From assembly GCA_035507575.1 (NCBI GenBank), contig DATJNY010000023.1, positions 39 through 64,038 of the forward strand: DNA of 64,000 nucleotides, read 5' to 3'. Shown here in pieces: positions 17,228 to 25,930 of this stretch (position 1 is the stretch's first letter; every line of letters begins with the position of its first letter). Both the position numbers and the translations under genes were made by a program. This DNA comes from Thermoplasmata archaeon. Lineage in GTDB: Archaea > Thermoplasmatota > Thermoplasmata > Lutacidiplasmatales > UBA184. The notes beneath the pieces were generated by a model that did no database searches, was not told the DNA's origin, and was given only the letters and a program-made list of their open reading frames with translations.

Positions 17228-18190
17228 ATGCCGGGGCACCGACTCGACTCCCTCGACATCCGCATCCTGCGAGAGCTCACCCAGGCCCAGACCGTTTTCC
17301 CGGCCCGCGTCGGCATGCAAGCGTCCTATCGGACGATTGCGCGGGCGGTCGGCGCCTCCTTCGGAACGGTGCGGAATCGGATCCGAACGATGTCGGAGGA
17401 GGGGGTCCTGAGGGGTTCGTCGACGTATCCGAGCCCCCGCCTGCTCGGCCTGCGTGCGGCATCCTACGCGGTGGAGGTCGGTCCACCCCGAACGAAGGCG
17501 GACGTCGTGGAGCAGTTGAGAGGCGTCGATGGGATGCTGTTCATCCAGAATTTCCGCGGCGCCCTCCTGGGGCTCGCTTTTGTCGCTCCGGAAGGGGCCC
17601 CCCCCGATCGCAAGCTCGACGAGATCGATCGGATCGTGGGAGGCCCCCGGGGCGTGCTGGGCACCGTCGCGTACCCTCCGTGCTCCGTCGCGCTCACGGA
17701 GACCGACCGAGCGCTTGTTCGGCGACTGGTCACTGGGTCGTTCGAGTCGTACCGACAGCTTTCGGCCGAGCTCCGGATTTCGGTGCGCACGATCAAGCGA
17801 CGTCTCTCTCGCCTGATCGATTCGAACGCGATTCTCTCGGTGCCCACCATGGACTATCGGGCGATCAGCGGAAACGTCCCTGCGGACCTCCTCGTCGCCT
17901 ACTCCGGGCCCGTTCCCCGCTCCGCCGCCGCACGGCGGATCCTCGAGCGCGTCGGCGAGTATCTGATCTACATGGGGATGTGGTCGGACCTCGAATTGTA
18001 CAGCCTGATCCTTCCACGGTTCTCGTTGGCCAACGAACTGGCGGACGAGATCGCTCGAGTTCCCGGTGTCGTGCACGCCCGGGTCGAGCTCGTCGATGAG
18101 CACATCGACCTCACGCGGAACCTGCGCCGCTTCTTGGATGCGCCGCTCCCCGTCTCCGGCGCGGTCCGCCGACGTGCGGCAGCCACCTAG
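17228..18190 (+). CDS. Tandem Lrp/AsnC-type winged-helix transcriptional regulator
   Basis: Two HTH units (LDSLDIRILREL..SYRTIARAVGAS..TVRNRI and LTETDRALVRRL..SYRQLSAELRISVRTIKRRL), each followed by a RAM-like domain. Confidence 0.85.
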   Translation: MPGHRLDSLDIRILRELTQAQTVFPARVGMQASYRTIARAVGASFGTVRNRIRTMSEEGVLRGSSTYPSPRLLGLRAASYAVEVGPPRTKADVVEQLRGVDGMLFIQNFRGALLGLAFVAPEGAPPDRKLDEIDRIVGGPRGVLGTVAYPPCSVALTETDRALVRRLVTGSFESYRQLSAELRISVRTIKRRLSRLIDSNAILSVPTMDYRAISGNVPADLLVAYSGPVPRSAAARRILERVGEYLIYMGMWSDLELYSLILPRFSLANELADEIARVPGVVHARVELVDEHIDLTRNLRRFLDAPLPVSGAVRRRAAAT

Positions 18191-18491: not shown

Positions 18492-19451
18492 GTGACCGCG
18501 GTGTGGGTGCTCTCCGTTCTCGGCGCGTTCGCCGTTGGTATGGCGGTCACCAGTGCGGTGGCGGTACGCTGGTCGGCGTTCGCGCAGGGGCCGCTCCGCA
18601 CGAGCGTGGTGGAATTCGTGCTGATGATGATGGCCGGAATGTTCGCCGGCGTGCTGGGCTACTTCGCCGTCGGAGGGACCTCGGGCGTGGTCACCGGGCT
18701 CTGGATCGCGGCGGCGATCATGTCCGCAAGCGTTCTGGTCGTATTCGTTGGGTTCCTCCAGGAGTTCCGACGGGGCACCGGTGCCGTCTCGCCCTCCCCC
18801 GACCCGACGTCCCGGATGCCGTTCGTCGCCACGGTCATCGCGCTCGTGATCGCCAACGAATTCCTGATGGGGTGGTCGTTCAGCCTTCTCGCAGGGTCGC
18901 TCGCTCCGGGGCTCGGCCCGGGGGCGTCTCAAACCTGGTCCGTACTGAGCGCCGCGGTGACCTCGCCCTGGTTTGTGTTTCCGATGGCGCTCGAGATGAT
19001 CCTCACCCTGCGCTGGCTGTGGGCGGACTTTCCGCGATTCGTCCGCCGGTTCCTCCTCCTCCAGCCGGCGATCATGGTCTGCTCGCCCCCGACCCTGGGA
19101 GGGATCGTTTGGCTCCTGGGCACGACGCTCGCCGCCGCCGTGCTGATGGCGGTCGCAGTGGCCCTCTTCCTCCTCGCGCTCTTCCGGGACGAAGCGATCC
19201 ACGAGCGGTGGACCGCGTACGTGGTCGCGTTTCTGCTGGCCCTCGGGCTGATGGCAGGGGGCTTGTACGTGTGGATCGCGTTCGGTCGGGCGGAGTTGTT
19301 CGCGCTCGCCCTCCTCGCGCAGATGGCGGTCTTCCTCTTCGCCGTCTGCAACCCCCGCTGGCTGGGCGGGTCCCCGGTCAGCGGGTCCGCATCCCCCTCC
19401 GACTCACGCCCCGTCGACGGGCGCGCGATGGACGCCGACGAGGGCCCGTGA
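18492..19451 (+). CDS. Multi-pass membrane protein, paralogous to the N-terminal half of the downstream membrane ferredoxin
   Basis: About nine hydrophobic helices; shared motifs ANEFLMxW, SPWFxFxMxxEM, QxAIMxxSP. Start uncertain (GTG 18207 or 18492). Confidence 0.75.
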   Translation: MTAVWVLSVLGAFAVGMAVTSAVAVRWSAFAQGPLRTSVVEFVLMMMAGMFAGVLGYFAVGGTSGVVTGLWIAAAIMSASVLVVFVGFLQEFRRGTGAVSPSPDPTSRMPFVATVIALVIANEFLMGWSFSLLAGSLAPGLGPGASQTWSVLSAAVTSPWFVFPMALEMILTLRWLWADFPRFVRRFLLLQPAIMVCSPPTLGGIVWLLGTTLAAAVLMAVAVALFLLALFRDEAIHERWTAYVVAFLLALGLMAGGLYVWIAFGRAELFALALLAQMAVFLFAVCNPRWLGGSPVSGSASPSDSRPVDGRAMDADEGP

Positions 19452-19541
19452 TCGGAACCCACGGCGCCCGTAGTAGGTACGTCGTGTTTAAGGCCCGGGA
19501 ATGAAATCGCCCGTCGCCGGGGGCGCGGCGACCGATTCCAC

Positions 19542-21680
19542 ATGGACGAGCGGACTCTCCTGCTGGTCGTCGTCGCCGTGGCGATGGGAATCGCGACCGG
19601 ATTGCTGATCCGGGCCGCGGTCGAGGCGCGGAGTCGCGCCCGCTCCTGGATTGCCGTCTACCTGCTCGCCATGATGGGCGAAATGTGGGTCGGCGCGGTC
19701 GTCGTCCTCGCTCAGCCCACGACGGCGGGGTTGGTCGCGGGGGTCGCGCTGAGCGGGCTCCTCATGGTGGCCACGATCGCCCCGGTCGCCGCGGGGCTCC
19801 TCCGCGGACGGGGATCCCTGCCGGCCCCGACGGCGCTCGGCGCGGAGCCGATCGCGCTGGGTTGGGGGATGGCCGTGGTCATCGCGGCGCTGGTCCTCGC
19901 CAACGAGTTCCTCATGAGCTGGGGACTGCTGCTTGCCGGCGGCGCAACGGCGCTCCCGACTGGCGCCCTCGGAATCTTCGGCTCGGTCGTCAACTCTCCG
20001 TGGTTTCTCTTCACGATGTCCGGGGAGATGTTCCTCACCGCGGGATTGCTGTGGAAGCGACTCCCGCGCCCCTTCCTCGCCGTGCTGCTGGTTCAGGCCG
20101 CGATCATGCTCTTCTCGCCGACCGCGCTCGGGGGCCCTTACTGGCCGTCCCTCGCGATCTACGCTTCGAGCGCCCTGATGATCGGGCTGTTCGTCTACCT
20201 CTTCGAGTACCTCTACCGGCATCGCCAGTTCCCGGCGGCGTACGGCTCGTACCTCGTCGAGCTCGTGTTCGTCTACGGCCTCATGATGGTCGGCCAGTTC
20301 GTCTGGGTCTACTTCGGGGATGGGACGACCTTCGCGGTCTCGATCGTCCTCGAGATGGTCGTCGTTTATCTCGCGGTTTCCCGGCCCGGCGCACTCGACA
20401 CCGGGCCGTCGCCTCCCTGGCAGCTCCGCCCGGCCTGGACGTTCGCGCTGCTCTCGGGAGTCTTCCTCGCCGAGGTCTGCATGGGGGCCGTGCTGAGCGT
20501 CCAGCTCGACCCGAGCGACTACCTCGGGGGCTTCCCGTTCCTGCCGCTCGCGGGCACGCCGGGCACGATCGCCCTCAACGCGTTGTCGAACGGATTCTGG
20601 TTCTTCGCGACCGCCGCCGCCTCGTCCTGGTTCCTCATCATGATGGGGCTCGAAATGGGCGCGCTCGTCGTCTTCAAGTTCCGAGAGAGCCGGAACCTCG
20701 AGAACCGGATCCGGCTCCTCCTGATGATGGGCTGCTACGCCGGATTCGCGGTGTTCTACCCCAGCATCTACTTCGCGCTGGTGTTCCCGTCCGCGCCGGA
20801 TCCCAGCCAAGTCCCCGTGCTCGGATGGCCGATGGGGATCGGCTCCTACCCGCTCGCGACGAGCGTCTTCGCGGTCGTTCTCGTGACGTACGTGGTGCTC
20901 GGCGCCCTGTCGGCGCTGTTCGGACGCCGCGTCGTCTGCTCCGTGTTCTGTACGGCGCCCCTGATGTACCAGGGAACGGCGATCGACTCGATGAAGTCGT
21001 TCAACCGATCGAGCCCGATCGCCCGAAAGTACCTCTCGAGTCGGTTCTCTGGCGCGTACTCGGCGACGCTCGGCCTCGTGATGGCGGCGCTCGTGGGCAC
21101 CTCGGTGCTCTCCTACCTCGACGCGATCGGCGCCGCGAGCGTCTACATCCAGGGGAACGATCCGTCTGTGTTCTTCTTCGTGGCGTCGTTCTCCGTGGCC
21201 TGGTACGTCCTGTTCGTCGCGATCCCGTACGCGGGCAACTACAACTGCGTCACGATGGGATGGTGCTACACGGGCACGATCTCCCAGGCGTTCCAGAAGA
21301 TCGGCTTCTTCAAGCTCAAGGTCCGCGACAAGCAGGTCTGCCGGGACTGCACGACGCTCGACTGCGCGAAGGGTTGCCCGGTCGGCCTCGTCGATATGCC
21401 CGGCCACTTCCGCACGAAGGGAGAGTTCCGGTCCACCAAGTGCTGCGGAGTGGGCGACTGTGTCGAGGAATGCCCGTACGACAATCTCTACATCTCGGAC
21501 GTTCGGCACTCGATCCGCCGCTGGCTCGGTCGACCCGAGACGCGCGCGCGACGCACGGGGCAGGCGGCCCATGGCCCCGCACGCCCCACGGCCGCCGTGG
21601 CGGCGGCGCCGTTCACGTTGGAACCGGACTCGATCCCTCTGCCGATGTGGAAGGCTCCGACTGGTGTCTATCACCGGTGA
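19542..21680 (+). CDS. Polytopic membrane protein with C-terminal NapH/MauN-type 4Fe-4S binding module
   Basis: Many TM helices; CSVFC and CVTMGWC membrane-side motifs; CRDCTTLDCAKGCP and CCGVGDCVEECP ferredoxin motifs. Confidence 0.85.
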   Translation: MDERTLLLVVVAVAMGIATGLLIRAAVEARSRARSWIAVYLLAMMGEMWVGAVVVLAQPTTAGLVAGVALSGLLMVATIAPVAAGLLRGRGSLPAPTALGAEPIALGWGMAVVIAALVLANEFLMSWGLLLAGGATALPTGALGIFGSVVNSPWFLFTMSGEMFLTAGLLWKRLPRPFLAVLLVQAAIMLFSPTALGGPYWPSLAIYASSALMIGLFVYLFEYLYRHRQFPAAYGSYLVELVFVYGLMMVGQFVWVYFGDGTTFAVSIVLEMVVVYLAVSRPGALDTGPSPPWQLRPAWTFALLSGVFLAEVCMGAVLSVQLDPSDYLGGFPFLPLAGTPGTIALNALSNGFWFFATAAASSWFLIMMGLEMGALVVFKFRESRNLENRIRLLLMMGCYAGFAVFYPSIYFALVFPSAPDPSQVPVLGWPMGIGSYPLATSVFAVVLVTYVVLGALSALFGRRVVCSVFCTAPLMYQGTAIDSMKSFNRSSPIARKYLSSRFSGAYSATLGLVMAALVGTSVLSYLDAIGAASVYIQGNDPSVFFFVASFSVAWYVLFVAIPYAGNYNCVTMGWCYTGTISQAFQKIGFFKLKVRDKQVCRDCTTLDCAKGCPVGLVDMPGHFRTKGEFRSTKCCGVGDCVEECPYDNLYISDVRHSIRRWLGRPETRARRTGQAAHGPARPTAAVAAAPFTLEPDSIPLPMWKAPTGVYHR

Positions 21681-22443: not shown

Positions 22444-24000
22444 ATGGGTGGCCGTGCGGATCCAACCGGCACCTCGGCGTCCGGGCCAGTCGAGTTTGAC
22501 CTGGTCGCCTATCTGGCGGGCTTTCTGGGCACAAGCGAGCCGGCGTTCGTCCTGATCAGCGGGGCCGTGGGAACCGGTAAGAGCACCCTGCTCCGGAGCC
22601 TCGTTCCGCGGGTGCCGGGTCCTAAGCTGTTCCTTGCCTTTCAAGCTCCGGTCGTGTCGAGCTCGGCGCCCACCGGCGCATCCGACGCGACCCCTACGGT
22701 CACGCTGCTCCTTGCCGACCCTCAGCGGGCCGAGGACGAGATCGCCGGCGCCCCGCACGACGCGGCGACCCTCCTCGCGTTCGGGCCCGAGGAGAGCGGC
22801 GAGGGGCCCTCGATGCCTCCGCTCCTCGCGGCGGCGCTCGCTCGGATGATCTCGGGCGGACTGGGAACCCTCTTTTCCGACTCCTGGGACCGCGGGAGCG
22901 AAGCGTTCTTTCGGAGTCAGGCGAACGGCGCTGCCAATCTCACGACGTTCACCGTGCCCCTGCGCAACTTGGTCGCTCTGCAACCGACGATTCTGTCGAC
23001 TCGCGCACGCCTCGCCGTGTGCGTCGCGCCGGCTGACGCGGCGGGCCTCCTATCGATCGCGGATGCAGCCGTCGAGCTGAGTCGGGAAGAGGTGCTCGGG
23101 AAGTCGGTGCGGGTCGTCCGGCTCGAGAAGGTGCGAGGCTTCCCGCCGCCGACCCGCCAGTACCTGTACTCCTTAGCCGGCGGAAAGTTCGTGGTGTACC
23201 CTCCGCTCCCGGCCGGTTTTCGCCCGCCGCATTCGGATGCGGAGCGAGACCCCGAGCCCGCGGCGCGTTCCACATGGCCCGGATCGACGGACTTCGCTCG
23301 AGCTTTCGGCCGCCTACGGCACGGGGGGCTCACTCTTCTCACGTCCTCGGCCGACTGTCCGGACACGGTGCCCCACGCCCTGGTCGCGCCCGGGGTAATC
23401 TCGGCGCTACGGACCGGAGGGCGCGTCGTCTGGATCCCCGCTCCTTCGGTCCGTCCGGGACGGATCGTACGGCTGCTGGGCCAATTCCTGCCGGCGGAGG
23501 TGCTGCGGGAACGTCTCCGCGTGCTCTCCTCGAGCGGCGACGACCCTTCGCTCGGTGAGCTGCGCCCGGTCGTGCTGCCGCTCATACGGGAGATCAGTGC
23601 GGGTAACGACCTGAGGGCCGCCAGTTCTCCGGGTGTCGGGCCGTACTTCAGGGAAGTCTATCACTTCCTCCGCGACGGGCCCGAGTCCGGACCGGTCGTT
23701 CACGTGGTGTCGGTCGAAGGGCTGCGTTCTGCGACCGCGACCGCCGGCTTTGTTCCGGACCCCACGACCGTCCCTTCCGTGGTCGCGCTCTACACGCGGC
23801 TGCCCCGCTACCACCTCTGGGCGTACGGCGCAGCGTCGGACGCGACGATTCCTCATTTGCGTCCCGCGGCCGACTCCGTCGTTCACCTCGAAATGGTCCA
23901 CGGCCGGCCGGTACTGATCGGCGTTCGGCCGGAGACCCAACCGTTCCTGCTCGCCTGGAATGCGGGGACGGGCCCGTACTCGCTCGTGCCGGTCGAGTAA
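22444..24000 (+). CDS. GvpD-like/RAD55 two-domain P-loop ATPase
   Basis: Walker A SGAVGTGKST; RVVRLEKVRG motif; a second degenerate RecA-like domain without Walker A (RLRHGGLTLL...GGRVVWIP). Confidence 0.75.
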   Translation: MGGRADPTGTSASGPVEFDLVAYLAGFLGTSEPAFVLISGAVGTGKSTLLRSLVPRVPGPKLFLAFQAPVVSSSAPTGASDATPTVTLLLADPQRAEDEIAGAPHDAATLLAFGPEESGEGPSMPPLLAAALARMISGGLGTLFSDSWDRGSEAFFRSQANGAANLTTFTVPLRNLVALQPTILSTRARLAVCVAPADAAGLLSIADAAVELSREEVLGKSVRVVRLEKVRGFPPPTRQYLYSLAGGKFVVYPPLPAGFRPPHSDAERDPEPAARSTWPGSTDFARAFGRLRHGGLTLLTSSADCPDTVPHALVAPGVISALRTGGRVVWIPAPSVRPGRIVRLLGQFLPAEVLRERLRVLSSSGDDPSLGELRPVVLPLIREISAGNDLRAASSPGVGPYFREVYHFLRDGPESGPVVHVVSVEGLRSATATAGFVPDPTTVPSVVALYTRLPRYHLWAYGAASDATIPHLRPAADSVVHLEMVHGRPVLIGVRPETQPFLLAWNAGTGPYSLVPVE

Positions 24001-24433: not shown

Positions 24434-25930
24434 GTGGCTGACTCTGGAAACTGGCCGCGGAGAATCGTTGCGGTGTTGACGAACGGGTTATGGCGCCCCT
24501 CGGTCATCGGCCGAACAGGAGGCTACTCCCTGTCGGAGCGTCCGCGATCCCCTTGCCGAGTGGGAACTTGGTCCGCGGTCGCCGTGCTTGCGCTAGCGAT
24601 GCTACTGGCGGGAGGGGGCGGACTCGTGCCGATCGGTGCTCGGTCCGGAACGATCGGCGCCACGGTACGGTCTCCGGATCAGGATTCTGGGCTCCCGACC
24701 TCGGTCGCCCCTGAGGCTTCCCCGATCCCCGCGCAGACCACGACCACGTCGCAGTGCGGCTTCTACGGGGCGCCATACGGACCGGCGGACGTCGTGTACG
24801 ACGATCACACGGGGCAAATTTTCGTCTCCGACTCGGAAACAAATGAGATCTACGTGATCTCAGAGACGACCAAGGCGGTGGTCCGCGTGATCTCGTTCGG
24901 GTCCGCGTGCGTAAACCCGTTCGGTCTCGCCTACGACCCGAATCTAGGGGTAGTGTTCGCAGCGGAGACCGGCGGGCGTGCCATCGCGGCGATCTCGGAC
25001 GAAAGCGACTCGGTGGTCTCGACCTTTCCCGTGGCCGGCAACCCGTGGAACATGGCCTACGATAGCGGGCGAAATGAATTGTTCGTCACGGAGCTCGACC
25101 AGGGCGACATCAGTGTCCTTTCCCTCCCCTCCGGCGCGACCCTCGATACCATCTCCGAGGGATGGACCGAACAACCCCTCGGGGTCGCCTATGTGCCGGC
25201 GCAGGGCGAGGTGTTCGTCACGAACTCGCTCGGGAACTTTTCCGACACGGTGAGCGTGATCTCGGATACGTCCGATTTGCCCGTCGCCTCCATTCCGGTT
25301 GGCTGTGGCGCGAGCCCCGGTACCTTCGGGCAGATCCCGTTCGGAGTCGTGAGCGATCCCGCCACGGGGGAGGTGTATGCTTCCTGCGAAACGGGGAACG
25401 GATTGGCGGCGATCTCCGCGGCCAACCACATCCAGGTGGGCACGGTCCCGATGAACAGCTCTGCCACCGCCCTAGCGCTCAACGAGGCCACTGGCGAAAT
25501 TTGGGCAGCGAGTCCCTTCACGGGTCAAGTCTTCGCCGTCTCAGTTCTCACCAACTCGGTGGTCGCCCAGGGCCCAACGGGCGGTTTCCCCTTCGAAGGC
25601 ATCGCGGTGGACAATCGAACCGGCGAGGTGTATGTGTCGAATTGGAAGTCGGAGAACGTCACCGTGTTCGGTCCGAACGCCTCCCCGATCGCGAGCATCG
25701 AGTTGCCTCCCCCCGCGTCCGCATCCTTCTGGTCGCTCCCGACGGCCGGTTGGGTGCTACTGGTCGTAGCTCTGGGAGGTTCGGGCCTGTTTGCGGCCGC
25801 CGTGTGGATGCGGTCGCGCGGGCCGCCACAGCACCTAGACAGTACCGCAGGCGACGACCCGCGCAGCCGTTCACCGCGGGGAGACGGCGACGGATCCGCC
25901 GATCAAGGATTTCCGCCAAAGCTCGGGTAG
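24434..25930 (+). CDS. YncE/YVTN-type beta-propeller surface protein
   Basis: Repeats P.G.AYD......FV......V.VI; signal peptide; C-terminal TM. True start is probably downstream of 24434. Confidence 0.85.
   Translation: MADSGNWPRRIVAVLTNGLWRPSVIGRTGGYSLSERPRSPCRVGTWSAVAVLALAMLLAGGGGLVPIGARSGTIGATVRSPDQDSGLPTSVAPEASPIPAQTTTTSQCGFYGAPYGPADVVYDDHTGQIFVSDSETNEIYVISETTKAVVRVISFGSACVNPFGLAYDPNLGVVFAAETGGRAIAAISDESDSVVSTFPVAGNPWNMAYDSGRNELFVTELDQGDISVLSLPSGATLDTISEGWTEQPLGVAYVPAQGEVFVTNSLGNFSDTVSVISDTSDLPVASIPVGCGASPGTFGQIPFGVVSDPATGEVYASCETGNGLAAISAANHIQVGTVPMNSSATALALNEATGEIWAASPFTGQVFAVSVLTNSVVAQGPTGGFPFEGIAVDNRTGEVYVSNWKSENVTVFGPNASPIASIELPPPASASFWSLPTAGWVLLVVALGGSGLFAAAVWMRSRGPPQHLDSTAGDDPRSRSPRGDGDGSADQGFPPKLG

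Follow-up and report, generated by a model that had tools for sequence, protein, structure and literature searches.

A methionine-lined membrane domain joined to a NapH-type polyferredoxin module in Thermoplasmata: a candidate for copper supply to the aerobic respiratory chain

What might a pair of neighbouring methionine-rich membrane proteins do for an archaeon, when one of them carries an iron–sulfur (Fe–S) module? The question is raised by two genes, here called A and B, which lie between positions 18492 and 21680 of a 64-kb stretch of DNA (the window; guanine plus cytosine content about 70%) from a Thermoplasmata archaeon. The source genome is 1.40 Mb in size and 84% complete, and the sequencing runs that hold the A–B stretch are DNA runs only, from wetland metagenomes. 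A preliminary description of the window had aligned the two proteins by eye, likened the C-terminal part of B to NapH and MauN, and suggested a heteromeric membrane complex with a redox or sensing role. Its observation is confirmed here, and its interpretation is partly supported. Judged by sequence, the pair joins a known kind of module, the NapH-type polyferredoxin, to a new membrane domain lined with methionine, and its most likely role is in supplying copper to the chain of aerobic respiration.

The methionine-lined domain and the Fe–S module

Both open reading frames (ORFs) were found on the + strand (Table 1). The GTG start of A is supported because 25 homologs of 307–350 amino acids (aa) begin at the aligned position. 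BLASTP aligned residues 14–307 of A with residues 12–297 of B at 33% identity over 300 columns (E 2e-33). The near full-length similarity seen by eye is thus borne out, and gene A and the first ~300 residues of B are, at the sequence level, true paralogs, far beyond chance. The paired motifs quoted for them are present (ANEFLMGW/ANEFLMSW, SPWFVFPMALEM/SPWFLFTMSGEM, LQPAIMVCSPPTLGG/VQAAIMLFSPTALGG and VWIAFG/VWVYFG), as are CSVFC, CVTMGWC and two ferredoxin-type motifs in the remainder of B. The reported richness in methionine also held: Met makes up 4.7% of A and 5.25% of B residues 1–400, three to four times the 1.42% background of 603 ORFs from the same genome, none of which reaches the content of A. 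Gene A had 52 homologs at 48–62% identity. Gene B had 422, the top 120 being 56–76% identical and all from Thermoplasmata; homologs of B occurred in 148 species genomes, and every match was a Thermoplasmata metagenome-assembled genome.

In an alignment of 122 sequences, 18 positions were jointly invariant in A and B (B numbering): M15, M45, M48, M75, E122, M125, W154, F155, M159, E162, M163, Q185, M189, W201, M213, M248, G251 and M272. They comprise 11 Met, 2 Glu and 1 Gln, with no His and no Cys. The superfamily as a whole, represented by 69 diverse members, keeps M15, P59, M75, E122, M125, S152, W154, F155, M159, M163, P193, M213 and M272. Both A and B carry M15, M75, E122-x2-M125, W154-F155-x3-M159-x3-M163, M213 and M272; the key residues in A's own numbering are E123, M126, W160, F161, M165, E168 and M169. 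Within the N-terminal domain of B, M44–M48 and M159–M163 form MxxxM motifs, and E122-x2-M125 is an ExxM motif.

An AlphaFold2 model of B was built on the 122 aligned sequences, with a mean predicted local distance difference test (pLDDT) score of 77.9 and a predicted template modelling score of 0.78. The pLDDT was about 90–97 for residues 1–400 and lower in the cofactor-dependent C-terminus. The superfamily-conserved residues lie near the middle of transmembrane (TM) helices 1, 3, 4, 5, 7 and 9 of this model, positions which suggest that the Met residues cluster in space; almost every helix of the domain has one conserved Met about halfway through the membrane. The N-terminus of A is predicted by the positive-inside rule to lie outside.

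The preliminary description had found no name for the shared domain, and neither did we. Pfam and NCBIfam returned nothing, whether the query was A, B's N-terminal part or any of ten distant relatives; a sequence-profile search of the PDB returned ferredoxin domains only; and Foldseek found no fold match in the PDB for the confident B model (best E 0.83, template modelling score below 0.22). Assignment of the Met-lined domain to a known family was rejected on these empty results. A profile search of 1.84 billion cluster representatives yielded 107 representatives of the family at E <= 1e-3, and no account of it was found in the literature. By these sequence searches the Met-lined domain is a new family, lineage-restricted and rare.

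On sequence grounds, gene B fuses three parts: the Met-lined domain, a second, partial repeat and an Fe–S membrane module that resembles NapH. In the second repeat, AEVCMG...SSWFLIMMGLEM pairs with ANEFLMSW...SPWFLFTMSGEM of the first copy. The match was weak with BLASTP at first, and hhalign then gave a probability of 93% (E 3.1e-7, 71 columns). The second copy carries E311, M314, W363, F364, M368-x3-M372 and E371, all at invariant columns, and is followed by a conserved basic stretch, KFRESRNLENR, that is predicted from the topology to be cytoplasmic.

For the full B protein the top NCBIfam match was NapH (NF007013, E 2.4e-7, 30.1 bits against a cut-off of 234), and TIGR02163 also matched (E 5e-7, 29.5 bits, cut-off 213). 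The isolated module scored 32.4 and 31.7 bits against the same two cut-offs of 234 and 213. NapH was likewise the top match for isolated modules of orthologs from two other lineages, with scores of 28–42 bits overall and a match spanning about 200 residues. As the B scores fall far under the cut-offs, they indicate superfamily resemblance and not NapH membership, and the earlier likening to NapH/MauN stands at that level only. By sequence, the module is a member of the NapH-type polyferredoxin superfamily, but neither a NapH nor a CcoG. In Pfam, Fer4_7 (E 5e-5) and Fer4_10 were matched below cut-off.

[quoted passage not shown] The differences are that B scores below the curated whole-protein cut-off; that NapH/MauN have two CX3CP motifs where B has C466-x3-C470-x2-P473 and C569-x5-C575 without Pro; that Fe–S motif II of B has the spacing C-C-x4-C-x3-CP; and that B has about 440 extra N-terminal residues (at least 12 TM helices) of the Met-lined family. 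Invariance of the cysteines was judged over 16 diverse B homologs. By its sequence, Cys pair 1 is the counterpart of the NapH-type CX3CP motif and is a candidate metal site; the model and the positive-inside rule would place it at the cytoplasmic end of a TM helix, and the predicted topology places Cys pair 2 at the cytoplasmic end of the last TM helix. Taken together, the helix list, the positive-inside rule and the expectation that Fe–S domains are cytoplasmic predict that B has its N-terminus outside, nine TM helices shared with A, three in the repeat and three in the module, and its ferredoxin domain (residues 591–661) inside. The clusters of NapH are cytoplasmic (PMC5449189). About 50 residues follow the ferredoxin domain to the end of B.

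Table 1. Location of genes A and B, of the parts of B, and of two related features on other contigs of the source genome
Feature	Position	Strand	Size, basis or remarks
Gene A	18492..19451	+	319 aa, GTG start; translation
Gene A, whole protein: Met-lined domain	18492..19451	+	polytopic, about 9 TM helices; no Pfam or NCBIfam match
A–B spacer	19452..19541	+	90 nucleotides (nt), read directly
Gene B	19542..21680	+	712 aa; translation
B residues 1–295: Met-lined domain (TM1–9), paralogous to A	19542..20426	+	122-sequence alignment
B residues 297–382: partial second copy of TM4–loop–TM5 unit	20430..20687	+	BLASTP, hhalign
B residues 444–652: NapH-like module	20871..21497	+	three TM helices and two-cluster ferredoxin domain; NCBIfam
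Cys pair 1, C466-S-V-F-C470 (CSVFC), then TAP	20937..20951	+	C466, C470 and P473 invariant
Cys pair 2, C569-VTMGW-C575 (CVTMGWC, CX5C)	21246..21266	+	both Cys invariant
Fe–S motif I, C600-x2-C603-x4-C608-x3-C612-P, CRDCTTLDCAKGCP (C600–P613)	21339..21380	+	all invariant
Fe–S motif II, C634-C635-x4-C640-x3-C644-P, CCGVGDCVEECP (C634–P645)	21441..21476	+	non-canonical spacing; all invariant
c1, orphan copy (locus L081)	contig C46:8835-10103	+	beside malate synthase and isocitrate lyase genes; no B after it
Double cupredoxin, 341 aa (locus L087)	contig C34:15486-16508	-	71 nt downstream of the c6-like gene

Partner genes and linkage to oxidase and blue copper genes

The ORFs of 80 related loci were clustered all-against-all. 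In 28 of the 80, as in the window, A was the gene immediately upstream of B in the same orientation, with a spacer of 20–146 nt across these 28 loci, so that the pair recurs in other genomes. Failure of the two genes to co-occur elsewhere, which the preliminary description had named as a refuting outcome, was thus not seen. An AT-rich TTTAAG box at 19487–19492, 50–55 nt before the ATG of B in this 70% GC genome, may by its sequence and position be B's own archaeal promoter. In the other 51 loci a different gene, c1, took A's place upstream; it ended about 33 nt before B or A in 59 of the 80 loci; ten loci had the order c1–A–B. The c1 protein is polytopic, about 440 aa long and without a Pfam match, and has an invariant Cys-Cys motif, GACCSTT (TLGACCSTTAAATAG), that is predicted to be intramembrane. 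Its model (pLDDT 85.6) had no fold relative in the PDB by Foldseek. A third family, c6 (about 318 aa), often followed B; it is remotely paralogous to A (hhalign probability 98.8%, E 6e-17) and has retained the Met signature. In Thermoplasmatales-like genomes (family f20) an A-like gene was convergent with B. Pairing of B with an Fe–S-less paralog is recurrent, and in other loci a more distant paralog stands at the partner position. This recurrence supports the heteromer suggested in the preliminary description and falls short of proving it.

Genomes of a second family, f10, had a Cys-Cys protein with the motif GGA[ST]CCISLP just after B. Homology between it and c1 was not borne out (hhalign probability 1%, E 0.05), and the two are treated as analogous because only the motif and the order of elements are alike. 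NapH and MauN have NapG, NapA or Mau partners, whereas the genes conserved beside B are c1, A and c6. Neither the 80 related loci nor the window contained a conserved nap, mau or nos partner (NapG, NapA, MauM), which extends to the relatives what had been remarked for the window. A possible relationship to FoxG of Sulfolobales had also been raised; no fox-type genes were found among the conserved neighbours of the 80 loci.

In the source genome A and B are in the window, an orphan c1 is on contig C46, in the malate synthase/isocitrate lyase neighbourhood that is the usual place of c1, and a c6-like gene is on contig C34. The system is thus spread over at least three contigs. Contig C34 carries CtaB, CtaA, COX1, cytochrome b, Rieske, TatC, a blue copper protein and COX2, and the c6-like paralog lies on its minus strand after COX2, at the edge of this oxidase cluster. 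The double cupredoxin next to it has a twin-arginine N-terminus (VSDVRTRRLSPPVRRALPWF...) and a C-terminal TM anchor, and its gene is convergent with COX2. Longest-ORF calling hides this gene, as its frame is open far upstream through the c6-like gene. Coordinates cross-referenced by hand put c6 some 8.7 kb away from COX1 in at least 14 of the family's genomes, and immediately next to B in at least 15 others. This bridges the A/B/c6 family to the oxidase cluster inside the lineage of the window itself.

In other lineages B itself adjoins such genes. At two f10 loci (L082, L083) the B ortholog was divergent from and adjoining COX1/3–COX2, and was followed by the Cys-Cys protein, DUF1404 and TatC. 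At another (L084) it stood after a sulfocyanin gene and beside TatC, and at a fourth (L085) between TatC and cytochrome b–COX1/3–COX2. In family f34 (L086) it stood between COX2–COX1–cupredoxin and Rieske/cytochrome b genes. Published descriptions contain similar clusters and assign them no function: Oxyplasma has a cupredoxin, subunits I and II of the oxidase, and a gene described as 'polyferredoxin NapH superfamily' in one cluster (PMC11349054), and complex IV loci of Lutacidiplasmatales include Tat (twin-arginine translocation) genes, a cupredoxin and six unassigned proteins, of which five have TM domains (PMC9287336).

At the four f10 loci, B and the Cys-Cys protein beside the oxidase genes were always accompanied by DUF1404 (PF07185, E 2e-46) and by an unassigned membrane protein of about 200 aa (YWLLFA..SN.M..YY...TPNPFFF). 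DUF1404 was present in Sulfolobus acidocaldarius, used as a control. It was considered as a universal component of the system and discarded, being absent from the window's genus.

A phyletic survey covered 401 Thermoplasmata genomes. The Met-lined domain was found in 83 of them, in four families (f1, f10, f20 and f34), and COX1 in 152. COX1 was present in 79 of the 83 genomes with the domain and in 73 of the 318 without it (Fisher's exact test, p = 2e-35, an association confounded by phylogeny, with four positive families). Two sister families of the same order had neither the domain nor COX1. The preliminary description had missed both the link to oxidase/blue-copper clusters and the Cys-Cys membrane partner, and these shift the likeliest role toward copper handling.

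Copper handling and its alternatives

To our knowledge, how archaeal respiratory oxidases and blue copper proteins are loaded with copper is essentially unknown. The A/B family is a concrete candidate, combining a polyferredoxin module that has a bacterial precedent in CcoG with a membrane domain of almost purely Met conserved chemistry. Among archaea a single cupric reductase has been described to date, an unusual CopZ (PMC7558416). We propose tentatively, as the likeliest of the readings considered and from the residues and gene order described above, that A and B may be membrane copper-handling subunits serving the copper proteins of aerobic respiration, namely the CuA and CuB sites of the haem-copper oxidase and exported blue copper proteins. 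The C-terminal module of B, with its two [4Fe–4S]-type motifs and two invariant Cys pairs, would lie at the cytoplasmic face, and by analogy with CcoG would take electrons from a cytoplasmic donor and keep or make Cu(I) at the Cys-pair sites. The Met-lined domain, whose thioether ligands are suited to Cu(I), would form a transmembrane path or a holding site, metal binding and transport direction being conjectured from the residue pattern. A, the Fe–S-less copy, would most likely form a hetero-oligomer with the B domain, a contact suggested by the pairing of the genes. Further components would be encoded elsewhere in the genome, as c1 on C46 and as the c6-like paralog on C34, upstream of the Tat-signal blue copper protein.

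This proposal is made because the ligands are almost solely thioethers, with MxxxM motifs; because the partners carry vicinal Cys predicted to be intramembrane; because the polyferredoxin module is of a type that in CcoG works as a Cu(II) reductase; and because linkage to oxidase, sulfocyanin and Tat genes repeats. If it is true, the family would be a new class of Cu(I) membrane protein and would supply a missing piece in how aerobic respiration is assembled in the Thermoplasmata, abundant inhabitants of acidic soils, peat and wetlands.

CcoG (FixG/RdxA) is a cupric reductase and an assembly factor of the cbb3 oxidase. It is Cu(II)-specific, with two [4Fe–4S] clusters and two Cu sites, and its gene stands beside oxidase genes (PMC7558416). 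CcoG, FixG and RdxA, with the short form YccM, share with B the polyferredoxin superfamily architecture of TM helices, Cys-pair sites and two [4Fe–4S] clusters, candidate ones in B, on the cytoplasmic side, and give a precedent for a copper role (PMC7558416). The oxidase-side location is shared by the B orthologs of f10 and f34 and by the Oxyplasma gene (PMC11349054), whereas in the source genome only c6 is found there. CcoG has a periplasmic Ig-like FixG_C domain, while B has no Pfam match beyond the Fer4 families; CcoG lacks the Met-lined, transport-like domain; and CcoG serves a cbb3 oxidase, whereas the oxidase of the present archaea is A-type and aa3-like, with blue copper proteins.

In FtrABCD iron uptake, FtrC–FtrD unite a permease and a NapH-like polyferredoxin and act with a cupredoxin-like partner. 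A and B would resemble this in concept, as a metal permease, a membrane polyferredoxin and a cupredoxin-like partner, but have no REXXE motifs and no homology to FTR1 or P19 (Pfam negative), and by their sequences a ligand set of Met and Glu would suit Cu(I) better than Fe. The copper importers Ctr1 and CcoA have intramembrane MxxxM motifs. B likewise has MxxxM in its conserved core (M44–M48, M159–M163 and M368–M372) but shows no sequence or fold similarity to either, and differs in helix number and architecture.

Several points weigh against a role in copper handling. Metal binding, reductase activity and a physical complex of the members are all predictions from sequence, and the clustering of Met in space is deduced from helix positions in the model. 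The module is nearer to NapH than to CcoG: CcoG was not among the 25 best NCBIfam matches of the module from any of three lineages, and FixG_C is absent. In the window A–B adjoins no copper gene, the link running through paralogs and orthologs. The phyletic association comes from the four positive families and is confounded by phylogeny, and about 73 COX1-bearing genomes of other families lack the domain. Sco1/SenC is the usual CuA chaperone. Had the family replaced it, Sco1 would be expected in oxidase lineages without the domain, and this was not seen: Sco1/SenC was not found in the window's genus and is nearly absent class-wide (14 of 401 genomes, weak matches). As Sco1 is missing across the class, there is no complementary pattern of displacement.

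A structural or electron-transfer subunit would be just as compatible with a place beside an oxidase cluster, and gene adjacency cannot separate copper handling from a role of B, with A, as a redox subunit of the archaeal respiratory chain. Such a subunit, which would be neither an assembly nor a transport factor, would connect cytochrome b/Rieske, sulfocyanin and the oxidase to a donor in the cytoplasm, for example reduced ferredoxin, or, in the manner of NapH, to the quinone pool, with the Met-lined domain as a quinone or ion-translocating arm. The best sequence match, NapH, is a subunit of a quinol dehydrogenase (PMC5449189); B orthologs lie among the structural genes for cytochrome b, Rieske, sulfocyanin, COX1 and COX2; the conserved Glu residues E122 and E162, placed within the membrane, could couple protons or ions; and the family is confined to oxidase-bearing lineages. 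However, the membrane domain has no conserved His or other ligand of haem or quinone type, and hence no obvious electron route across the membrane from the cytoplasmic clusters. The full Met signature is retained by the Fe–S-less paralogs A and c6, a sign that its ligand function does not depend on the clusters. B lies far from the oxidase genes in most f1 genomes, the source genome included, and the Cys-Cys partner proteins better suit metal handling. We regard a redox subunit, the main rival, as somewhat unlikely; if it were one, the pair would be a new component of archaeal respiratory chains.

Decidedly less probable is a general transporter for detoxification or uptake of soft metals (Cu, Ag, Hg) in acidic soils and wetlands, with an indirect link to the oxidase through the heavier copper stress on aerobic lineages. 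The Met-rich MxxxM signature would suit it, as would the intramembrane vicinal Cys-Cys partner, which we take to recall mercury and copper carriers. The A–B and c1–B loci of f1 lie mostly amid unrelated housekeeping genes, and the source is a wetland metagenome. However, no metal-responsive regulator, CopA/CopZ or mer gene was a conserved neighbour in the 80 loci, physical linkage to COX, sulfocyanin and TatC is repeated in three lineages, and nearly all anaerobic Thermoplasmata from comparable habitats lack the domain. A membrane redox sensor, in which the clusters report the redox state and the membrane domains transmit it, seems barely plausible. A protein with two helix-turn-helix (HTH) domains of Lrp/AsnC type is encoded upstream in the window, but its gene is not conserved as a neighbour; B has no output domain in Pfam or NCBIfam; and 11 invariant Met are unlike the conservation expected of a sensor. 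Of the roles put forward in the preliminary description, nothing points to quinol-side electron transfer or to sensing.

Copper might also be held permanently, as redox centres, by the Met and Glu sites of A and B. These would then carry electrons across the membrane as a haem-free 'copper wire' from the cytoplasmic clusters of B to extracellular blue copper proteins and the oxidase, and so as a new respiratory entry point, for example a ferredoxin:sulfocyanin oxidoreductase. We consider this very unlikely; if true, it would account for the re-oxidation, in these aerobic archaea, of the ferredoxin that comes from 2-oxoacid oxidoreductases.

Other genes around the pair

Other neighbours in the window (the Lrp/AsnC-like gene, a 109-aa ORF, an AAA_16 ATPase-like gene and surface proteins) were considered as partners and set aside, as they are not conserved with the pair. 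The product of the Lrp/AsnC-like gene (17237–18190, + strand), 317 aa long, has two HTH domains of AsnC type and weakly matches a NirDL-like HTH (E 6e-4). Rather than a regulator, it could be a siroheme decarboxylase in fused form (AhbA/B-like, haem synthesis). On the other side of the pair, a 518-aa protein (22444–24000, + strand) has a Walker A motif, GAVGTGKST, and weak AAA_16, STAND and KaiC matches; it was found downstream in only five related loci.

CoxE-type von Willebrand factor A (VWA) and MoxR-type AAA ATPase genes lay downstream of c6 and convergent with c1–B–c6 at L031, L036, L042, L046 and L047. In carboxidotrophs a CoxE/MoxR pair helps to build the Mo–Cu site of CO dehydrogenase. 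With five loci only, too few, the CoxE-VWA and MoxR genes were not retained as partners. The NAD(P) transhydrogenase genes pntAA–pntAB–pntB were divergent from A and immediately upstream of it at seven A–B loci (L034, L052, L056, L057, L058, L073 and L002), which is probably lineage synteny. Large surface proteins rich in Thr, Ser and Asn, with C-terminal anchors, flank the region in the window (12818 to about 17100, - strand, and 24434–25930, + strand), and relatives of them (cluster c2) were found near B, on either side, in 24 loci.

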